From Pseudobdellovibrionaceae bacterium (GTDB lineage: Bacteria > Bdellovibrionota > Bdellovibrionia > Bdellovibrionales > UBA1609), in contig CP060220.1 of assembly GCA_023898385.1 (NCBI GenBank), positions 2,655,683 to 2,719,682 of the forward strand: a stretch of DNA of 64,000 bases, written 5' to 3'. Positions within the stretch are counted from its first letter, which is position 1. Each line of letters starts with the position of its first letter. The position numbers were made by a program, and so were the translations under genes. The notes under the pieces were generated by a model that did not search any database, was not told the origin of the DNA, and saw nothing but the letters and a program-made list of their open reading frames with translations. Of this stretch, positions 1,066 through 44,942 are shown in pieces.

Positions 1066-1983
1066 ATGAATAATAATTCCATGAATCAAAAGGGATTTTC
1101 TCTCATCCAGGGTCTCGTGGCCGTAGGCATTATGTCGCTTGTGGCGATGAGTGTTGCCGGCCTGTTCACTCAGATGGCGGCGAATCAAAAACGCAACAAC
1201 ATCATTTTCATGCTTCAAAATAAAAAATTAAACTTAGAGCAATCTCTAAGAGATGATCGGACATGGCAAAAAATTCTGGCACACGATAACAATCAAGGGC
1301 AATTGCAGTGTCTTAGAAAAATGCAAGACTGCATGGAAACAGCAAAAGAATTACCAGACCCTCCTGGTGAACTTATCCCTATAATTGTGGATGGGAGCAA
1401 TCGTGTGTTAGTGGATAGCACCATCACAGGTAACAATATTGGTGGCATGACTTATCAAGGTACACTTTGCCATGAGTTTGTAGATAGAGACGTGTATTTT
1501 TCTGAGAATGGAAATGATCAATGCCCCTTGCGTCTAGAAGTGCGCTGGCGACCCATTTGCGATAAAGAGACAGATACTTCCTGTTTGAACCCACAGATAC
1601 AAATTACTGGTTCCTATAAGCATTCGCCCTATCAGATGGGCAAGTTGAATCTCAATTTTGTGCAATATCAAATAGAAGTGGTGCGGCCCGGGGTGACGGC
1701 AGAGATGATCCAACAAGCCATGCAAAAATATGTCGAAGAAAAGTCTTCCGTACAGCAAGCGAGCCCCGGACTTTCGAGTTCGCCGCAGTTGCCATCAGAG
1801 ACGGCATCAAATCAAACTCCTTCCATGACGGTGGATGATGCAAAAAAAATGTTAGAGTCAGATGCACTTAAAAAACAAGATCTACCGAAAGAATTCACAG
1901 AAGGAATGAATCGATTGCTAGAGGCGCAAAAACAACTTGAGCAATTACAAAAAGAGTTGAAGTCTCAACAAGAGGCTAATTAA
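1066..1983 (+). CDS. Prepilin-type N-terminal domain protein (pseudopilin-like), Gln/Glu/Lys-rich C-terminal tail
   Basis: N-terminus MNQKG|FSLIQGLVAVGIMSLVAMSVAGLF matches the type IV prepilin cleavage/methylation motif (G|F-x-L-I-x plus hydrophobic helix), with Q instead of the usual E5. The C-terminal third is low-complexity (LEAQKQLEQLQKELKSQQEAN). Confidence 0.55.
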   Translation: MNNNSMNQKGFSLIQGLVAVGIMSLVAMSVAGLFTQMAANQKRNNIIFMLQNKKLNLEQSLRDDRTWQKILAHDNNQGQLQCLRKMQDCMETAKELPDPPGELIPIIVDGSNRVLVDSTITGNNIGGMTYQGTLCHEFVDRDVYFSENGNDQCPLRLEVRWRPICDKETDTSCLNPQIQITGSYKHSPYQMGKLNLNFVQYQIEVVRPGVTAEMIQQAMQKYVEEKSSVQQASPGLSSSPQLPSETASNQTPSMTVDDAKKMLESDALKKQDLPKEFTEGMNRLLEAQKQLEQLQKELKSQQEAN

Positions 1984-11704: not shown

Positions 11705-13417
11705 TTAAATTTGTAGGTCACCAGTGGCGGGAGCAATAACCTCAAGCAGGTTGTTAAATACGTTGGCCACCTGTGTGGCCACGGTTATGCCCTGTTCACT
11801 CTTGACGTTTTGAATCTTACCATTTTTATCATATTCAATACTGATACTGCCCAGGCCGGGGCGATCTACTAAGGCGGGCTTGCCAAAGCGCTCCTCATAC
11901 ATAATTGTTACTAGCTTACGAGCTTGGTCTTCAATTAGATTGATGCGACCTTTGCGATCATAGCCAATCTTAATTTTTTGTCCGCTCGAGTTGCTTGCAA
12001 CCACAAGATTGCATTTTTTTGAATCATAAGCGAACTGAGTAGAAATTTCTTTCTGAAGCTTGCGCACAGGTGCCGAGGCTGTTTTTGATTTGCCACCGGC
12101 CTTGGCTTTGGATTCATAGACAAAGTACTTCGTTGAAACCTGTGACACTTTCGTGCATTTTGTTTCATATTTAAAGAACATCTCTCTCGAGGGTTCAGTC
12201 CGCACTTTAAGTAGACCGTTGTCGTAATATTGGTAGCGGGTTCGTTGGGCGTTCTTCAGCACAGAAGTAGGTTTGCCAAAAACATCGTGATAGTAGGTGT
12301 CAGTGACTTCACCATTATTGTCTGACTTGGCTCTGTGTAGATATCGACCGGTCCCGTCTGGCTTTTCGCGATACCAAAATTCATATGAACTTTTGTTGGT
12401 TACCTTTTTGCCGCAAGTTTTCACAACCAAAGATTTGTAGTAGTCTAAAGGCTCTTTTTCAGTATCTTTATATTCGTATTTTTCAACGCACTGGCTGCGA
12501 TCCGTAAAACTCACCACCCAGTCTTTGTCCTTGTTGTATTTGATGTCTTTGAATGTTTTGTCGGGGAACGAAATTTTAGTTAAATTGTGGTGGTCGTCGT
12601 ACTGATAAGAGTAGGTAGATCCCCAAGCATTAGTCATTCCGACCAGATCTTCCCCGTCATGCACATAGCTCACCTTAATGCCGTTGGGACCAACAATTGA
12701 CTGAACCTTTTTTGCAGCACCAGCAAGTTTAAACGAAAGTTTATTTCCATTGTTGTCTACAACACTATCGATTAAACCCGATTTTGGGTCGCGGTTAATG
12801 TTTAGAAAATTTCCGTTGCGATCTTTCATTTGAATAAGTAGGCCGGCAGTATTGAATACTTCGAGAGTCCCGTCTGGCAAGTAGCGGTAGTATTTGCCTT
12901 TGCTAAATTTGATTTTCTCGTTTTCTCTTCCAAGGGCAATATACATGGTGCCAGGTTTCAGTTTCGAGCCGAGATTCAATTGGCGAACAAACTCTTCTCG
13001 AAGGAAAGTGTCAGTTTGAAGATCCTTTTCCAGTTTAGTAAAAAAAGAAGGCGTCATTTTGGGATTTCTTTTTTTCACTTCTTTAACAACTTCAGAAATG
13101 GTTTTTTTAACCTTATCTGGGTCAAAATCACGGGCCAAATAATCCACTTCCTGGCCACCACCACATTGGGTGACTTTAACGTTCCCTTCAGCTGTGGTTT
13201 CGAGCTTGGTCTCGAAATCAGAACACCACCCAAAACCAAACATGCCATTAAAAAGGGTACGGCTGTTGTAAGTTCGTTGAATTCGAAGATCATAACCTGA
13301 GTTAGGTACAATCAGATCCAACCAAGTATCAGAAAAATTCGCATTGCGCATATCCACAATGCCAAAAGCCACAGATGGCATCCATGCCAAAACCAAAAGC
13401 CCAAAAAGCTTCCTCAT
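11705..13417 (-). CDS. Secreted YD-repeat (RHS-family) protein
   Basis: Signal peptide, then repeated YD-type units (YQYDDHHNLTKISFPD, RYQYYDNGLLKVRTEP, IGYDRKGRINLIEDQ, IEYDKNGKIQNV, DRNGNFLNINRDPKSGLIDSVVDNNGN). ATG 13417 preferred over the track's TTG 13420. No recognisable C-terminal toxin domain. Confidence 0.75.
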   Translation of the reverse strand: MRKLFGLLVLAWMPSVAFGIVDMRNANFSDTWLDLIVPNSGYDLRIQRTYNSRTLFNGMFGFGWCSDFETKLETTAEGNVKVTQCGGGQEVDYLARDFDPDKVKKTISEVVKEVKKRNPKMTPSFFTKLEKDLQTDTFLREEFVRQLNLGSKLKPGTMYIALGRENEKIKFSKGKYYRYLPDGTLEVFNTAGLLIQMKDRNGNFLNINRDPKSGLIDSVVDNNGNKLSFKLAGAAKKVQSIVGPNGIKVSYVHDGEDLVGMTNAWGSTYSYQYDDHHNLTKISFPDKTFKDIKYNKDKDWVVSFTDRSQCVEKYEYKDTEKEPLDYYKSLVVKTCGKKVTNKSSYEFWYREKPDGTGRYLHRAKSDNNGEVTDTYYHDVFGKPTSVLKNAQRTRYQYYDNGLLKVRTEPSREMFFKYETKCTKVSQVSTKYFVYESKAKAGGKSKTASAPVRKLQKEISTQFAYDSKKCNLVVASNSSGQKIKIGYDRKGRINLIEDQARKLVTIMYEERFGKPALVDRPGLGSISIEYDKNGKIQNVKSEQGITVATQVANVFNNLLEVIAPATGDLQI

Positions 13418-13444
13418 CAAACGCTCCTTGTGATGAAAATGCTA

Positions 13445-13627
13445 CCCGCCTTCGAGAGTGAACAGAGGCCAGCGGGGAAAGTGTGGGGCGCCAGCACCTC
13501 ACGATGTGCATGGCGTATCCGGGTTGCGGCACGCAAGCGACGCAATCCGAAGACGACATGCGGCCACTCGTGCCGTGCTGGCGCCCCACACTTTCCCCGC
13601 TGGCCTCTGTTCACTCTCGAAGGCGGG
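13445..13627. repeat. Foldback element A1: 53-bp perfect inverted arms plus 77-nt imperfect-hairpin core
   Basis: 13445-13497 is the exact reverse complement of 13575-13627. Core 13506-13565 matches 58/60 to the reverse complement of 22099-22158. Confidence 0.9.
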
Positions 13628-13631
13628 CGAA

Positions 13632-14510
13632 CTACACTTTTATTGTAACAATTTTTTTCATTGCAACTCCACCAATAACTTGGAGAGCTAACATAATAAA
13701 GAGAGCAACCCATCCTAAAGGCTTAGTGAACAAGGGCATCACGTAAGCAGGATCAATTGCAAGAAATACAACTAACAATAGAAACGGGACTAAAGTAATA
13801 ATAATTCCTTGTGTGACACCTTGAGCTGTCATGGCTTCGATTTTCTTTTCAACTTTTTGTCGCTCACGAACCGTGGTGTTAATGGTTTGAAAAGTTTCGG
13901 CGAGATTTCCGCCTGTTTCTTTAAGAATAATTACAGAAGTCACAAACATTTGCACATCTTGCCGGGGGATCCGGTCAGCCATTTCTACCAATGCTTCTTC
14001 AAGGGACATCCCCAGGCGAATTTTGTTCAGAACAAGTTTGAATTCTTGAGACAGGGGCCCTGAGAGATTGCCAACCACTCGCTCCATAGACTGAGTGATG
14101 CTTAAACCTGCACTCACACCGTTGGCCATAATGGTCATGCCATCCACCATTTGGTCGACCAGTCGATTGCATCGTTTTTGCCAAAGGTTATTGAGGTATG
14201 TTTTTGGAAGCTGGAGGCCCAGTAAAGTAATGGCGACAGCAAATATTAAGCCGGGCACAACATTGGGCCAAAGCAGTAGAAAAACCACCAGTCCCAGGCC
14301 AAACGAAAGCAGCAAAACTGTGATGGTGATTTTCTTTTTATCCACGTCGAGCATCATTCGATCCATAAGCTCCGTGATTTCTTCTCGCGTGCCGATGGTT
14401 CTCTTGTAGAAGAATCCTATAATCCGATCCGAGTAAAGATAGGATAAGATAAATACAACTATGGCAAAAGCCGGAATGACAAAAAACTCTTCGCTGAATA
14501 ATGCGGTCAC
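13632..14510 (-). CDS. tadB: Tad/Flp pilus assembly inner-membrane protein (T2SS-F family, TadB/TadC-type)
   Basis: 292 aa with a T2SSF domain pattern (MVDGMTIMANGVSAGLSITQSMERVV..LKETGGNLAETFQTINTTVRERQKVEKKIEAMTAQG) and TM helices. Overlaps cpaF by 4 nt. Confidence 0.85.
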   Translation of the reverse strand: MTALFSEEFFVIPAFAIVVFILSYLYSDRIIGFFYKRTIGTREEITELMDRMMLDVDKKKITITVLLLSFGLGLVVFLLLWPNVVPGLIFAVAITLLGLQLPKTYLNNLWQKRCNRLVDQMVDGMTIMANGVSAGLSITQSMERVVGNLSGPLSQEFKLVLNKIRLGMSLEEALVEMADRIPRQDVQMFVTSVIILKETGGNLAETFQTINTTVRERQKVEKKIEAMTAQGVTQGIIITLVPFLLLVVFLAIDPAYVMPLFTKPLGWVALFIMLALQVIGGVAMKKIVTIKV

Positions 14511-16831
14511 TTTTCGCCTCCGCTAGTGCCGTCGCCGGAGGCTTTTTTAAGAGGCTGAGGGCGAGGGCTAGAAGTGGTTGCGGTTTGTGTTCGTGGCCGC
14601 ACAGGTGTGGGGCCAGCTTTTGAGCCCGCCGCTGGAGAATTAGGGTCACTGGCCCCGCCGTTTGATGTGAATAAGTCTCGAGGGACCATTATGCCTCGTT
14701 GCTCAAATTTTTCAATAAAGGTGGGAATACGTCCCATGGCCTGAAACTGCCCAACCACTTTTCGATTTTTATCAAAACCGGTTTCTTTAAATCGGAAGAT
14801 CTCTTGCATGGTGACGGCCTCACCCTGCATGCCAACGATTTCCGTGATGCTGCTGATTTTACGGGAGCCGTCACTGAAACGCGTGATTTGTACGATAAGA
14901 TTGACGGCACTAGCAATTTGCTCTCGAATGGCTCGAGCCGGGAGGTCCATTCCAGCCATTAAACAAAGTGTTTCAAGGCGCGAAATCGCTTCACGAGGGT
15001 TGTTAGAGTGAACTGTGGTCATTGATCCATCGTGGCCTGTATTCATCGCAGCTAGCATATCAAGGGCCGCACCATCGCGAGTTTCTCCCACCACGATGCG
15101 ATCGGGACGCATTCGGAGAGAGTTTCTAATAAGGTCGCGAATTGAAATTTCTCCGGCCCCTTCCATGTTGGCTGGTCGGGTTTCTAGGCGAACCACGTGT
15201 TCTTGTTTCAACTGTAGTTCTGCGGCGTCTTCGACAGTGATGATTCGTTCATTGGTAGGTATAAATCCAGAAAGCACATTCAATAGGGTTGTTTTACCAG
15301 TACCTGTGCCGCCTGATATAATAATGTTCAAGCCTTGTTCCACGCAAATTCTCAAAAAATCAGCCATTCCTCGCGTCATTGATTTGAAACGATCTGTATA
15401 GTCCAAAATAGTTACCCGTTCAGATGGAAATTTTCGAATGGTAACGGCAGGTCCATCGATGGCCAGAGGTTCAATCACCGCATTCACTCGGCTTCCATCG
15501 GCCAGGCGAGCATCGACATAAGGAGTTTTCTCATCGATACGCCGACCTAAAGGAGTAACAATTCTCTCGATGACATTTTTAAGCTGCTGATTGGAAGTGA
15601 ATGTCACGGGGCTTAATTGAATCTTACCACTTTTTTCAATGTAAATTTGTTTCGCGCCATTCACCATGATTTCTGTAACTCGAGCATCTTCCAGCAACTC
15701 TTCGAGCGGGCCAAGGCCCAAGGCTTCATCCAAAACTTGTTTGATCACCTGACCTCGCTCCTCGCGTGACAAGTGAGAGGCCATTCGGTCTGTGAGTTGC
15801 GACACCACACGTGTGGTTTTGTCACGCAGCTCTTTTTCTTTACTGGGGTCACCCTTGGAACTTGTAAGGTCTTTTTTTAGGTCCATTTCGCGAATGAGTT
15901 GATGGTGAATTTGCGCCTTTAATAGACTTGGGGCGTCCATTTCATTTTTTTGCCCTTTAGCCTGTGATCCCGATGGGGCGGTGCTGTCGAGAGCGGGCAG
16001 GTCTGAGGTGGATTGTGTGCCTCGAAGATTTTTTGGCCTAGAAGTGGTTTTTAATTTTTGTAACAAGCCGCCTGTCAGCCGGCGGGCGACATCGCGATAC
16101 CCCTGCGCCATGGGGCTATTGGGGGTGGTTAACATAAAAGGAGCCGATCTTTGCAGCGAAGAGTACGCAGTGGCCTCATCGTTGGCAATGAGACCGATAA
16201 TAGGGCGATTTAGACTTTGTGCAATTGAGTTGGGATTCAATGCATTTCTACCCATCTTATTGATCACCACTTGAACCATTTCGGCCGGCACGGTGGCGGT
16301 CACTAGGTCGTGTAGCATTTTTTTGGTTTGATTGACCACGAGAACTTCTGGAGTTGATACCAAGAGAATGACACTGGCATTTTCAATCGCGGCCATCTGC
16401 AAGTCCTGTAGGTCATTTCCGATATCGGCAATGATAAACTTAAAATGTTGGCTCACTGAATATAATTGTTTTTTAAACAACTCCGGGGATGCGGCAAGAG
16501 TTTGATCGGGAGTTTGCACGGCGCCCAGGTAAGACAATCCTGAGGAATGACCTGTTAGGAGCGAGCTGAGAGTTTGCGCCGTGAGGGAGGCCTTAAATTG
16601 AGTGAGGTCGTTCACGGTTTTGTTCGGTCTCACACCAAGAATGACGTTTTGGTCTCCACAGCTTCTTGCGTCGAGATCAATAAGTAACGTTTTCGACCGC
16701 ATTTCTTGCATCAGAGTAATAGCAAGGTTAGCCGCAAAAACGCTTTTACCGACGCCACCTTTGCCGCCGGCCACTACAATGAGATGTGAGTTTTCGTGAA
16801 TCGCCAAAACACCACTCCTTTGGTTACTCAT
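14507..16831 (-). CDS. cpaF: Fusion ATPase: N-terminal MinD/ParA-like (TadZ/CpaE-type) domain plus C-terminal CpaF/TadA secretion ATPase
   Basis: N-terminal deviant Walker A VVAGGKGGVGKS with a MinD/CpaE-like fold to about aa 265. C-terminal CpaF core (ISGGTGTGKTTLLNVLS, VVGETRDGAALDMLAAMNTGHDGSMTTVHSN). Pro/Ser/Thr-rich tail. Confidence 0.9.
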   Translation of the reverse strand: MSNQRSGVLAIHENSHLIVVAGGKGGVGKSVFAANLAITLMQEMRSKTLLIDLDARSCGDQNVILGVRPNKTVNDLTQFKASLTAQTLSSLLTGHSSGLSYLGAVQTPDQTLAASPELFKKQLYSVSQHFKFIIADIGNDLQDLQMAAIENASVILLVSTPEVLVVNQTKKMLHDLVTATVPAEMVQVVINKMGRNALNPNSIAQSLNRPIIGLIANDEATAYSSLQRSAPFMLTTPNSPMAQGYRDVARRLTGGLLQKLKTTSRPKNLRGTQSTSDLPALDSTAPSGSQAKGQKNEMDAPSLLKAQIHHQLIREMDLKKDLTSSKGDPSKEKELRDKTTRVVSQLTDRMASHLSREERGQVIKQVLDEALGLGPLEELLEDARVTEIMVNGAKQIYIEKSGKIQLSPVTFTSNQQLKNVIERIVTPLGRRIDEKTPYVDARLADGSRVNAVIEPLAIDGPAVTIRKFPSERVTILDYTDRFKSMTRGMADFLRICVEQGLNIIISGGTGTGKTTLLNVLSGFIPTNERIITVEDAAELQLKQEHVVRLETRPANMEGAGEISIRDLIRNSLRMRPDRIVVGETRDGAALDMLAAMNTGHDGSMTTVHSNNPREAISRLETLCLMAGMDLPARAIREQIASAVNLIVQITRFSDGSRKISSITEIVGMQGEAVTMQEIFRFKETGFDKNRKVVGQFQAMGRIPTFIEKFEQRGIMVPRDLFTSNGGASDPNSPAAGSKAGPTPVRPRTQTATTSSPRPQPLKKASGDGTSGGEK

Positions 16832-22034: not shown

Positions 22035-22221
22035 CACAGACGAAGGCACAGAGACCAAGACGATTGGATGCGGATGCCTGCGTCTGCCTGGCGCTTTCGG
22101 CCGCATGTCGTCTTCGGATTGCGTCACTGGCGTGCCGCAACCCGGATACGCCATGCACGACGCGAACGGCAGACGCAGGCATCCGCATCCAATCGTCTTG
22201 GTCTCTGTGCCTTCGTCTGTG
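22035..22221. repeat. Foldback element A2: 54-bp perfect inverted arms plus 79-nt core (inverted relative to A1)
   Basis: 22035-22088 is the exact reverse complement of 22168-22221. Core 22099-22158 matches the reverse complement of 13506-13565 at 58/60. Arms are unrelated to the A1 arms. Confidence 0.9.
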
Positions 22222-22254: not shown

Positions 22255-23103
22255 TTGGGTTTTCATAGGCGACATTTTAGACCATTGTCCTGCCAGGCTG
22301 GGCAGGGGGCGGTGGAGTACATTTTAATGTTGGTCATAGTGGTTTCCATCGTTATTGGTTTGATCTATCAATTTAATAAAGATTTTGAACGATATGCGAA
22401 CGCCTTTTTCGGGGATTATCTCACTTGTTTGATTGCTATGGGAGAGTTGCCTTCCTTGGGTGGTGGAGGTGGCAGCGAATCGGCTTGCCTTGCTGAATTG
22501 CAGGCCTTTAATCAGGCGGGTCAGCAAATGGCTTCGCGTGGAGCGGGTGCTGGAAATAAATCTGGTGAAAACGCAGAGGGTGAAGAGGGTGACGGCGAGG
22601 GTGAAGAGGGTTCGGGTGGTGACTCTAAGGCCAACAAGCGAAGTGGTGGTGGTGCCACAGCTGGTGGTGGTGTACGCAGCCGTCGTCGGGGTAATCGTTT
22701 TCGCGCTGGAAATAAATGGAAAGATCAAGAGGTGGCCTCGCAGAAATCAGGTAAAGAAGAAAGTGCCACGGCCGGGTATGTAAATGTTAATTCTCCCACT
22801 TCGGGTGGTAATGCGGAGCCTTTACGTCAAAATCGCATGTTGATTTCTCGTGGTGGCGCCAGTGAAAAAGAAGAAAAAGAAGCCAAAAGAGCTAAGCCTT
22901 TGGTGAAAACAGAAGAAGCCAGAGGGCGAGGTCAACGAATCAAAATCAATAGAACACTCGCCAGTGACCAGAAAGATCTCGACGTGGAGGCTGAATTCAC
23001 TCTGGGAGGTCTTGTGCGATTTTTGATCATCGTGGGGATACTCATTGCCTTGTTGATGTTTTTGGGTGGTCAAGCCCTTCAACTTTCTAAATCCATGGAA
23101 TAG
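22255..23103 (+). CDS. Flp-prepilin-like protein with ~230-aa Gly/Glu/Lys/Arg-rich extension and C-terminal TM helix
   Basis: TTG start with GGAG 6 nt upstream. ..SCQAGQG|AVEYILMLVIVVSIVIGLIY is nearly identical to the Flp leader and helix. The rest is low complexity (GEGEEGSGGDSKANKRSGGGATAGGG..) and ends with LVRFLIIVGILIALLMFLGG. Confidence 0.6.
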   Translation: MGFHRRHFRPLSCQAGQGAVEYILMLVIVVSIVIGLIYQFNKDFERYANAFFGDYLTCLIAMGELPSLGGGGGSESACLAELQAFNQAGQQMASRGAGAGNKSGENAEGEEGDGEGEEGSGGDSKANKRSGGGATAGGGVRSRRRGNRFRAGNKWKDQEVASQKSGKEESATAGYVNVNSPTSGGNAEPLRQNRMLISRGGASEKEEKEAKRAKPLVKTEEARGRGQRIKINRTLASDQKDLDVEAEFTLGGLVRFLIIVGILIALLMFLGGQALQLSKSME

Positions 23104-41883: not shown

Positions 41884-42045
41884 AAGGCACGCTTCGAAGA
41901 AGCCAACCGCCGCGGGAGCCCACCTGCAAAAAGGCTCAGACATTCGTTCGGCAGCAGTGCTCGCTTTTAGCGAGCACTGCACCGATCCGAACTCGCTTTT
42001 TGCAGATGGGCTCCCGCGGCGGTTGGCTTCTTCGAAGCGTGCCTT
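41884..42045. repeat. Foldback element B1: 50-nt arms (49/50 complementary) plus nested-hairpin core
   Basis: 41884-41933 pairs with 41996-42045 with one mismatch. Segment 41928-42009 is 82/82 identical to 42920-43001. The inner hairpin is gcagtgctcgc-tttta-gcgagcactgc. Confidence 0.9.
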
Positions 42046-42057
42046 TAGATTTTACTT

Positions 42058-42888
42058 TTGGAGTTGTTCTTGGATATTTTTCAGTCGATTTTTTTAGGGA
42101 TCGTTCAGGGTCTTACTGAGTTTTTGCCCATTTCTAGTTCTGGGCACTTGGTAATTTTTCAAGAATTGCTAGGCGTGGAGCAGCACAGTATTGCTTTTGA
42201 TGTAGCGGCTCATTTGGGGACCGTCTTGACGGTCATCACGCTCTATTTTGCAACTGTGCGCCAGATGCTTTGGGAGGTGATCACTTATCCTTCTCATCGA
42301 CGGTTCACTCCTGGCATCAAGCTGATGTTATTGATCGTCGTGGGGAGTGTTCCAACAGCCATCATTGGTCTGAGTCTTAAGGATATGTTTGAGTCGTTGT
42401 TTTCTAATTTGTTGGCTGTGGGTATTTTTTTGACAATCACGGGTTTGATTTTGTTTTTAACTCGAAACAAGGCTCGCATTTCACGGCATATTGATGTGCA
42501 TAGCCTCGAAGACGTAAAGGCCATGCACTACTGGCAGGCAGCACTTATTGGTGTGGCGCAAGGTATGGCTATCGCGCCTGGAATTAGTCGTTCGGGATCG
42601 ACCATAGCAGCGGGCTTGGCACTGGGAATCGATCGAAAAACCACGGCGCTTTTTAGTTTTATGTTGTCATTGCCGGCAATTATGGGCGCTGGATTATTGC
42701 AGTTGCGTCATATTACCAGTTGGGATCACCAAGTGTTGTTGAGCTTAGGTGTGGGCTTTTTGACGGCCTATTTATCGGGTTTGATGGGCTTATGGGGAAT
42801 TTTGTATTTTGTAAAAAAAGGCCGACTTGAATATTTTAGTTATTATCTTTGGGTTGTTGGGCCGGCAGTTATATTCTGGAGCCTATGA
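42058..42888 (+). CDS. uppP: Undecaprenyl-diphosphate phosphatase
   Basis: IVQGLTEFLPISSSGHLVI.., ..GISRSGSTI.. are canonical UppP/BacA motifs. TTG start with no in-frame ATG nearby and no obvious SD. Confidence 0.9.
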   Translation: MELFLDIFQSIFLGIVQGLTEFLPISSSGHLVIFQELLGVEQHSIAFDVAAHLGTVLTVITLYFATVRQMLWEVITYPSHRRFTPGIKLMLLIVVGSVPTAIIGLSLKDMFESLFSNLLAVGIFLTITGLILFLTRNKARISRHIDVHSLEDVKAMHYWQAALIGVAQGMAIAPGISRSGSTIAAGLALGIDRKTTALFSFMLSLPAIMGAGLLQLRHITSWDHQVLLSLGVGFLTAYLSGLMGLWGILYFVKKGRLEYFSYYLWVVGPAVIFWSL

Positions 42889-42889
42889 G

Positions 42890-43023
42890 CCACCAGCCGC
42901 CGCGCCGGAACCCATCTGAAAAAAGGCTCAGACATTCGTTCGGCAGCAGTGCTCGCTTTTAGCGAGCACTGCACCGATCCGAACTCGCTTTTTGCAGATG
43001 GATTCTGGCGCGGCGGCTGGCGG
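42890..43023. repeat. Foldback element B2: 36-nt arms (32/36 complementary) plus the same core as B1, same orientation
   Basis: 42890-42925 pairs with 42988-43023. The core is identical to B1. Starts 1 nt after the uppP stop codon. Confidence 0.9.
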
Positions 43024-43076
43024 ATCATGGGCATCCAAAGGGAATCCGATACCTTTTGGATGGGGAGGGGAAAGAT

Positions 43077-44520: not shown

Positions 44521-44596
<76 letters not shown>

Positions 44597-44601
44597 AAAA
44601 T

Positions 44602-44630
44602 AAAAAAGCCCGAGTGGGCTTTTTTTATTT
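44602..44630 (+). terminator. Rho-independent terminator after tRNA-Phe
   Basis: aaaaaAGCCCgagtGGGCTttttttattttt. Confidence 0.75.
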
Positions 44631-44749
44631 TTGATGGTTTGGCCGAAGCCAAACCATGATGGTCTCCGACCTTCTCCTCGCTTTGCTCGTCGTGCGGTCT
44701 CGACCACAAGCTGCATCAAAATGCTTTGCATTTTGCCGCAGTCTTGAAA

Positions 44750-44772
44750 GGTTCAATTCCGTCCCGAGCCAC
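44750..44772 (+). repeat. Direct repeat of the tRNA-Phe 3' end (att-like scar)
   Basis: ggttcaattccgtcccgagccac is identical (23/23) to 44572-44594 inside the tRNA. It is followed at 44814-44846 by a second, similar terminator hairpin (aaaaAGCCCtttGGGCTttttttg). Confidence 0.85.
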
Positions 44773-44942
44773 TCGTGATCTTTATACAGTACATTTTTTT
44801 GTTTGGGTCACTCAAAAAGCCCTTTGGGCTTTTTTTGTTTTTTTGGATTGAGTTTATTCCCTTTCATTTAACTTATGCCACTAGTGCGATGACGACCCCG
44901 GGGTTGAATTCTTGCGCAAAGTGTCGTAGTTGTTTCAGCCTT

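Follow-up and report, generated by a model that had tools for sequence, protein, structure and literature searches.

A probable dispersed foldback repeat family with a conserved core and locus-specific arms in Pseudobdellovibrionaceae

Introduction

Next to the last gene of a tad operon, the chromosome of a Pseudobdellovibrionaceae bacterium carries a 183-bp foldback, here called A1, whose two 53-nt arms are exact complements of each other. The question raised by this locus is what kind of element A1 is and how such long arms are kept perfect. We analyzed it within a 64,000-nt stretch of DNA, referred to as the window (assembly GCA_023898385.1, contig CP060220.1, positions 2,655,683 to 2,719,682). 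A first-pass annotation made from the sequence alone had described A1 as a foldback of no recognised family that is too long for a simple terminator, and this reading is supported by the comparisons with Rfam, attC sites, repetitive extragenic palindromic (REP) elements and their REPIN doublets, miniature inverted-repeat transposable elements (MITEs) and terminators given below. On balance, we judge it probable that A1 represents a single insertion of a dispersed, non-autonomous repeat whose copies occur in Pseudobdellovibrionaceae and other, related Bdellovibrionales. The family is genuine and apparently undescribed.

Results

Structure and position of A1

The anatomy of A1 and of its two neighbouring genes is as follows (positions in the window).

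13445..13497, no strand assigned: A1 left arm, 53 nt, 68% GC, locus-specific, exact reverse complement of 13575-13627
13498..13574, plus strand: A1 core, 77 nt, quasi-palindromic and conserved with fixed single mismatches; the plus orientation is set by GCGTATCCGGGTTGCGGCA
13513..13531, plus strand: 5' block of the core, GCGTATCCGGGTTGCGGCA, invariant, holding a fixed G.T position and the 5' side of an internal loop
13532..13539, plus strand: variable apex, a short stem and loop
13542..13555, plus strand: 3' block of the core, GCAATCCGAAGACG, invariant, 3' side of the internal loop
13575..13627, no strand assigned: A1 right arm, 53 nt, exact reverse complement of the left arm
13628..13631, plus strand: CGAA boundary motif, asymmetric, filling the entire gap between the right arm and the stop codon of the tadB-like gene
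13632..14510, minus strand: T2SSF/TadB-like gene that ends the tad/flp operon (Pfam T2SSF, E = 2.3e-21; homologues annotated 'tight adherence protein B')
11705..13417, minus strand: RHS/YD-repeat (DUF6531) lipoprotein-like gene, named from Pfam and homologues, with its ATG at 13417 and the ribosome-binding site AAGGAG ahead of it

The palindrome described in the first-pass annotation was recovered in full: the arms match over 53 of 53 positions, a match given by no shuffle, and their pairing runs on to 60 nt at 97%. The 77 nt between them form, as had been proposed, an imperfect hairpin with single mismatches and an apex at about 13532-13539, and the unit as a whole folds into a rod both as RNA (minus strand, -167.3 kcal/mol, z = -17.4) and as DNA (-102.6 kcal/mol, z = -17.7). 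A1 is also visibly richer in GC than its surroundings (66.1% vs 46.3% for the window), and the five mirror-image open reading frames (ORFs) ascribed to it are present in the ORF list: 13329-13589(-), 13417-13713(-), 13430-13648(+), 13458-13691(+) and 13483-13746(+).

The reported position holds as well. Four nucleotides (CGAA) separate A1 from the stop codon of the TadB-like gene (13632-13634), and on the other side we measured 27 nt to the ATG at 13417 of the RHS/YD-repeat gene, with A1 on the upstream side of that gene. The names given to these neighbours, the last tad gene and a YD-repeat gene, agree with Pfam and with the source annotations. No T-tract adjoins A1, as had been stated, and a search for promoter or terminator consensus sequences at A1 and at the second copy A2 (see below) found none. 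Searching the whole window against Rfam release 15 returned tRNA-Phe alone at the gathering thresholds, so that A1 has no family assignment there. A permissive search of 13380-13700 gave three sub-threshold matches, MIR1437 (95.8 bits, threshold 168), MIR918 (77.5 bits, threshold 268) and MIR1858 (75.8 bits, threshold 137). The MIR1437 match is nearly equal on the two strands (95.8 and 94.8 bits), and these plant miRNA-precursor matches are generic matches to a long hairpin.

Within the window, a single 774-aa ORF (14507-16831, minus strand) encodes a CpaE/TadZ-like ParA/MinD domain fused to a CpaF/TadA-like T2SSE ATPase; the same fusion also occurs in orthologues, where the called products measure 750-830 aa.

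Distribution of the family

Four long foldbacks lie in the window, A1 and A2 of what we call family A and B1 and B2 of family B.

22035..22221, minus strand: A2, an A1-type core in opposite orientation with perfect 54-nt arms unrelated to those of A1
41884..42045, plus strand: B1, a different 62-nt core with 50-nt arms (1 mismatch), between a Ser/Thr kinase gene and bacA
42881..43032, plus strand: B2, the B1 core with decayed outer arms (87% complementary), overlapping the bacA stop codon

The core of A2 is 96.7% identical to that of A1 over 60 nt. A2 precedes a conserved 282-aa gene by 33 nt and the flp pilin gene by 412 nt; B1 and B2 are directly oriented, one on each side of bacA/uppP. The whole tad locus is bracketed by A1 and A2 with their cores oppositely oriented. 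The 282-aa protein beside A2 (22255-23103, plus strand) belongs to no Pfam family and has 715 homologues in the representative library; its region shows a raised GC content of 51% and a strong GC skew of 0.22.

Family A is defined by the 5' block, a variable apex, the 3' part of the core and self-complementary arms of at least 27 bp. A1 carries all of these, with GCGTATCCGGGTTGCGGCA at 13513-13531, GAYGCAATCCGAAGACG at 13540-13555 and arms that are perfect over 53 bp. Scanning metagenomes with a 20-mer from the family A core yielded 19 loci from soil/rhizosphere, digester/wastewater and peat samples. A gapped core pattern run against a species-representative genome collection gave 9 loci, all in metagenome-assembled genomes (MAGs) of Bdellovibrionota: seven copies in one uncultured Pseudobdellovibrionaceae MAG, one in a second such MAG and one in a 'Bdellovibrionales bacterium' MAG. 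In total, about 20 further copies are found beyond the window, all of them in Bdellovibrionota MAGs or soil/wastewater metagenomes; since copies were gathered by exact core patterns, their apparent conservation and taxonomic range are biased. A six-frame search with core peptides for more copies returned a single protein. The 'hypothetical protein' H6626_11515 (P0121) of a Pseudobdellovibrionaceae contig is the translation of another copy, and gene callers make spurious proteins from the rods at 13417-13713(-) of the window and at 539-880 of locus L036.

Copies of family B and of a third family, C, directly adjoin family A copies at some loci (L012, L015 and L006). The only copy of family C seen is at L006 1059-1202, with a 78-nt core and 33-nt arms (1 mismatch), 80 nt from a family A copy. 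The motif ATCCGAA occurs in both A and B cores, which by our own estimate is compatible with chance. A variant of the family A core is found at L021 (about 1200-1290; match 1254-1273, minus strand), where the apical loop is replaced by a 14-bp extended stem (CATCAATCAGATGG...CCATCTGATTGATG) and the 3' half departs after GCAATC, so that this copy may be truncated or chimeric.

With such palindromes, a trivial explanation has to be considered, namely that the rods are assembly or sequencing artefacts such as foldback chimeras. Short-read contigs often break inside these elements; one assembly (L033) stops 30 nt into an A1 arm, which is typical of short-read assemblers at palindromes. Moreover, some metagenome contigs are chimeric through the common core: at L011, L020 and L008 the two core flanks are not complementary, and L011 joins the left arm of one element to the right arm of the L036 element, joins evidently caused by the common 77-nt core. 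Against an artefact, the ENA assembly ERZ28656079 (L037) independently spans the complete A1 together with both flanking genes at 1937/1938 identity, A2 is complete in the independent assembly L014 and B2 is present in L001 and L002. These assemblies come from other samples, and the family recurs with conserved anatomy in many samples and MAGs. The first-pass annotation had named absence from long reads across the site as a possible sign of an artefact; the independent assembly contains the palindrome. We regard this explanation as practically negligible.

Conservation of the core

Among 19 distinct copies, the family A core measures 77-106 nt with a GC content of 59-68% and a median identity of 81%. 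The A1 core itself is 96-100% identical to those of L009, L036, L011/L020 and L008. High GC is general for the core only, the arms ranging from 0.24 to 0.68. The two blocks GCGTATCCGGGTTGCGGCA and GCAATCCGAAGACG are invariant in the alignment of the 19 copies. This invariance is partly imposed, since the search patterns required 13-20 nt of the 5' block; the metagenome scan, however, placed no condition on the 3' block, nor did the genome scan on the outer parts of either block.

Around these blocks the sequence changes while the pairing is kept. The apical stem covaries among copies (CAC/GTG, CATC/GATG, CATCGC/GCGATG or CATTGC/GCAATG) below loops of GAAA, GAA, GTTA, GATA or GCCA, and the helices around the blocks do the same, for example as CATG/CATG, CGGCG/CGCCG or CATTG/CAATG. 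When the core structure was tested on the alignment, 95.2% of cells were paired compared to 25-43% with slid partners, and 48 cells carried a double change where shuffles gave 17.4 +/- 3.3 (0 of 500 reached 48). Read on one strand, the fixed mismatches of the core are of the purine-purine or G.T kind; read on the opposite strand, they are pyrimidine-pyrimidine or C.A. The difference in core stability between the strands averages 2.3 kcal/mol and is not decisive.

Divergence and mirrored change of the arms

The boundary between the conserved core and unrelated arms is sharp. Across the 19 copies the arms span 27-63 bp and hold 6 mismatches in 794 pairs (99.2% self-complementary), only 3 of which are of the G.T type. 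Between copies, the median identity of the arms is 0.25, close to the 0.22 of shuffled sequence, in contrast to 0.81 for the core. The A1 left arm is unlike the arms of the other copies except for a residual ACAGAGGYCAGC, which it has in common with A2 and L036, and inner arm segments are common within subfamilies.

Closely related copies show how the arms change. A composite of about 440 bp, made up of a 14-bp hairpin (TCTCTAAAGGGTGG/CCACCCTTTAGAGA), a B copy and an A copy, is present at L012 (5790-6215) and L015 (1235-1660) with about 93% identity within unrelated genomic flanks, which suggests that rod clusters can duplicate as a unit; the arms travel with the element on duplication. Comparing the L012 and L015 copies, three changes are mirrored on the partner arm and one is not, and between L010 and L012 nine substitutions and three indel columns are mirrored against a single unmirrored change. 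A further comparison is provided by L025 and L030, which are orthologues downstream of dapB (protein 80% identical). Many substitutions separate their arms, as do 19- and 17-nt indels that match on the two sides of the palindrome, and yet each copy is still essentially perfectly palindromic. While the third codon positions of dapB are 50.7% identical, the arms match at 30 of 57 positions and the core at 77 of 77 beyond the boundary base. The arms drift at about the neutral rate, with changes including indels mirrored on the partner arm, and the core stays nearly constant; this neutral yardstick is one clean orthologous pair in which both sites are filled. The L030 palindrome additionally repeats, in inverted form, the final ~7 codons of dapB together with its stop codon, so that palindromes may sometimes extend outward, as here into the 3' end of dapB.

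At the foot of the rods, 7 of the 19 copies have a CGA no more than 5 nt from the right arm, among them A1 with its CGAA; on the control side it is present in 1 of 19, and chance would give about 0.8. Past an asymmetric internal loop, the rod of several copies goes on into a further helix, and in one soil subfamily this outer loop is itself conserved (ATCGAT on the left, CGAGGAC on the right). The family is thus made up of rods whose conserved asymmetric loops are spaced by helices that can have any sequence.

In its layout, a constant scaffold between hypervariable and perfectly duplexed arms, the element is reminiscent of a cassette for hairpin-RNA expression, and one could imagine that the arms are spacers acquired from phage, plasmid or prey, or antisense guides, which are expressed as a long hairpin RNA and diced with the core as scaffold. 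The lack of relationship between the arms of most copies would fit, as would the fact that the only weak Rfam matches are long-hairpin miRNA precursors. However, 13 arms had no match in 50,697 phage and 72,556 plasmid records, the arms showed none elsewhere in the window, and neither the window nor the neighbouring ORFs (best 25 of 94 families) revealed an associated gene set. Besides that, the copies are scattered singly rather than arrayed, and where copies are related their arms are homologous, with a gradual divergence at the neutral rate, all of which makes acquired arms very unlikely. Searches with the cores gave similar results: a 23-mer from the core gave 0 matches in viral contigs, and the A, B and C cores gave a single chance-level match in phages and plasmids (E = 5e-3), inside a Sulfitobacter toxin gene.

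A1 as an insertion at the tadB-like/YD-repeat junction

The gene pair around A1 is conserved across the Bdellovibrionales, and at five orthologous junctions in other members of the order the spacer between the two genes measures 21-35 nt and is without a hairpin.

L035: spacer of 28 nt
L038: spacer of 27 nt
L039: spacer of 26 nt
L040: spacer of 21 nt
L041/L042: spacer of 35 nt
Window: spacer of 214 nt, that is 31 nt plus the 183-nt A1

Since these five spacers are short and hairpin-free, the entire A1, arms included, is a lineage-specific insertion, and because the orthologous sites are empty its arms represent neither a local duplication nor the stem of a pre-existing hairpin. In the closest relative, L034 (TadB-like protein 80% identical), the contig stops 30 nt past the stop codon (987-1016) in other GC-rich sequence, GCTCCAGGGGATTTGCCTGGGCCCACCTGT; this junction is probably occupied by a rod with different arms. 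A closer orthologue of the downstream gene, sought in order to rebuild the L034 element, was not found, the best match being 54%.

These empty sites also bear on the proposal that arms are made on site, either by a mobile core entering the loop of an existing hairpin, for example a terminator, or by an insertion that triggers an inverted duplication of the flank. Such an origin would account for the inverted dapB end within the L030 palindrome, for the additional outer helices beyond the internal loop in several copies and for the sharp boundary between core and arms. At A1, however, the five empty sites contain neither arm nor hairpin and the residual 31-nt spacer matches the 21-35 nt seen elsewhere, so that both arms are foreign, and with 68% GC they stand out from a genome of 46% GC. 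In addition, arms were duplicated together with their cores at L012/L015 and are partly common to L010 and L012. Both versions of this proposal, local inverted duplication and insertion into an existing hairpin, are rejected for A1 by the empty orthologous sites, and in general we consider it improbable.

Genomic context

The window represents ordinary core chromosome, with genes for RmuC, GroEL, tad, NadE, SucCD, Mdh, Mla, BacA, Dus, GlnE, TolB and Suf and without any transposase, integrase or reverse transcriptase. Similarly, no protein family is recurrent among 88 ORFs neighbouring copies elsewhere (best 25 of 94 families). The tRNA-Phe (GAA) gene at 44521-44596 is followed by A/T-rich inverted repeats (AAAAAGCCC...GGGCTTTTT) within 44586-44846, which resemble ordinary bidirectional terminators and contrast with the foldback rods.

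Copies of the family fill intergenic gaps almost completely, the nearest stop codon being -20 to +25 nt away, and many sit between convergent genes. These positions lead to the main alternative explanation, in which the rod is a host-selected RNA element of the 3' or intercistronic untranslated region, acting as terminator, 3'-exonuclease block or RNase III site with the core as RNA-protein motif. It is favoured by the location at gene ends and by the frozen core of the L025/L030 orthologues, whose synonymous sites are near saturation; the covariation of the core helices also speaks for it, and the nearest upstream gene would transcribe the same core strand in 7 of 9 scorable cases (binomial p ~0.18, not significant). 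Several observations do not fit. With respect to the genes beside it the core can point either way, A2, L009 and L026 are located 33-40 nt upstream of gene starts (the gene beside A2 being real), neither core strand is clearly more stable, and there is no U-tract or terminator consensus. Moreover, the near-absence of G.U pairs in the arms (3 of 794 pairs of the G.T type) together with mirrored indels points to copying at the DNA level, and five orthologous tad junctions manage without any hairpin. Altogether, we consider an RNA element possible, though clearly the less probable account.

The perfect inverted repeats of 27-63 bp around an asymmetric segment could also suggest an invertible switch, in which recombination between the arms flips the core and toggles the neighbouring genes. 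Template switching between inverted-repeat arms is indeed known to invert spacers (PMC8604942), and the A1 and A2 cores are oppositely oriented. In the assembled sequences, however, the core orientation is the same in A1/L037, A2/L014, B2/L001/L002 and L025/L030 and also in the duplicated copies L012/L015, so that the orientation differences expected of an inverton are seen at no shared locus. As promoter consensus sequences are absent in or beside the core and no invertase gene is located nearby, a switch appears highly improbable.

Comparison with known elements

In lifestyle, the closest known system is that of the REPINs, in which REP doublets form hairpins that are mobilised by RAYT transposases; in these hairpins the ends are conserved and the centre varies (PMC3116915). 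REPINs and family A alike are short, extragenic and non-autonomous, occur in multiple non-coding copies and form long hairpins as single-stranded DNA (ssDNA) or RNA, and they have in common compensatory stem changes, long persistence and clustering with other copies (PMC3116915). Their layout is reversed, since REPINs keep the two terminal REP 16-25-mers around a less conserved spacer, whereas family A keeps the centre and has locus-specific ends. No gene for a RAYT (Y1 HUH transposase), which REPs often flank, was found among the ~50 window ORFs or in the loci, and the conserved parts of family A showed no REP hallmarks, for example a 5' GTAG. With unrelated ends in all 19 copies and conservation in the centre, the family does not belong to the REP/REPIN elements.

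Other intergenic repeats of comparable size are the classical bacterial MITEs and palindromic repeats such as Correia/NEMIS, ERIC/IRU, RUP and Nezha elements, which measure 100-200 bp, are sometimes located in operons and can form transcript hairpins that affect mRNA processing. These families are conserved over their whole length with terminal inverted repeats and target-site duplications, whereas the arms of family A differ at every locus, which excludes it from this class. Its conserved boundary features are only the one-sided CGA-type motif (~40% of copies) and short subfamily-specific loop motifs. Direct repeats of 3-6 nt at the flanks are not constant in length or position, and the empty sites are too diverged to rebuild the target.

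In their logic, attC sites and the ends of IS200/IS605 elements are closest, because they are folded strands recognised via mismatched bases; like these and the attP hairpin of CTX phage, family A is a structure-defined imperfect hairpin, a design in which unpaired or mismatched bases give strand and protein specificity. The one-sided CGA motif recalls the tetranucleotide target or cleavage sites of IS200/IS605. Differences are nevertheless clear. attC sites have R boxes (R''/R', RYYYAAC ... GTTRRRY) conserved at the base, a variable middle and an arrangement in cassette arrays beside an integrase gene, none of which is found at family A, and IS200/IS605 elements have two different small subterminal hairpins instead of one 180-bp rod. 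A GTTRRRY motif is absent from the ends of A1, A2 and B1, the nearest to B2 being 19 nt outside, and copies occur singly among housekeeping genes with no integrase in the window, so that A1 is not an integron attC site. An intrinsic terminator shares with A1 a GC-containing hairpin just past stop codons, often between convergent genes. Its stem measures 5-15 bp and is followed by a U-tract, in contrast to the ~85-bp stem of the A1 type, which has a conserved core, lacks a U-tract and lies upstream of genes in some copies; no terminator-like site was found at A1 or A2, and A2 is 33 nt upstream of a real gene. A1 is therefore not a terminator of this kind. Searching the literature on palindromic, MITE or stem-loop repeats of Bdellovibrio returned nothing relevant, and we assign A1 to no named family.

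Discussion

With moderate confidence, we propose that the A1 family is a non-autonomous, structure-defined foldback repeat whose arms are re-templated from each other and whose core is a protein recognition site. What keeps the arms perfect is probably a templated DNA process that copies one arm from the other, and not selection acting pair by pair: a single mismatch costs a 50-bp stem almost nothing, G.T pairs are near-absent and indels are mirrored. Candidate processes would be intramolecular template switching during replication, hairpin-templated repair or arm-to-arm conversion. Template switching corrects quasipalindromes and homogenises the arms of inverted repeats (PMC7202029, PMC8604942, PMC5941160), and it makes multi-base compensatory changes in a single event (PMC8794818). 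It would thereby yield mirrored substitutions and indels and perfect arms in one step, but as a mutational process and not an element family it leaves the conserved core and the spread of copies unexplained.

A second component would act on the core. Its mismatches are kept although copying would erase them, which argues for purifying selection on an asymmetric folded site, and on the present comparisons the core is probably the recognition site of a predicted protein partner. Together with the CGA-type boundary motif it may offer a handle by which a trans-acting protein recognises the folded strand, either an enzyme that mobilises the folded single strand or a host nucleic-acid-binding factor. 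More speculatively, the one-sided CGA motif would fit a strand-specific reaction. If transcribed, the very stable hairpin at the tad locus could represent a 3' barrier or a processing site between the last tad gene and the YD-repeat gene. A more specific version holds that the rods are mobile or maintained DNA bounded by the hairpin foot and read as folded ssDNA by a putative Bdellovibrionota enzyme via the mismatched core and the CGA, while the helices drift through re-copying of the arms; this we put forward only tentatively, as a doubtful possibility.

Several points weigh against the proposed foldback repeat. No mobilising or binding protein was identified in the window or the loci, no case of polymorphic excision or insertion came to light within a population, and no consistent target-site duplication was found at the flanks. 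Conserved ends, on which classical transposases depend, are absent or very short. For a selfish repeat it is unusual that the core stays frozen between orthologues, and the element could instead have a host function at each locus, for example as an RNA element. Clean orthologous comparison with both sites filled comes from a single pair, and the search patterns account for part of the invariance of the two core blocks. Finally, template switching is deduced from patterns of change, and arm-to-arm gene conversion or arm regeneration during transposition would look similar.

The family reverses the usual layout of REP/REPIN elements and MITEs, in which the ends are conserved: here the loops are conserved and are joined by helices that drift at the neutral rate, ~99% complementary and with mirrored indels. 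Its arms represent an unusually clean natural case of concerted evolution between the two arms of a hairpin, and the family argues that long stems can be kept perfect by DNA-level copying instead of by selection acting pair by pair. For the biology of a poorly studied predatory phylum, a non-coding core of ~77 nt under very strong constraint implies a putative protein partner. On the practical side, the rods break short-read assemblies, make chimeric contigs and yield spurious 'hypothetical proteins' such as H6626_11515 in Bdellovibrionota MAGs. At its own locus, A1 splits a conserved and otherwise tightly coupled junction of tad and YD-repeat genes and may alter the expression of an adhesion-pilus operon. 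If the rods are indeed read as folded ssDNA, they would constitute a new class of folded-ssDNA substrate for recombination or transposition and would offer a natural system for the direct measurement of template-switch homogenisation.

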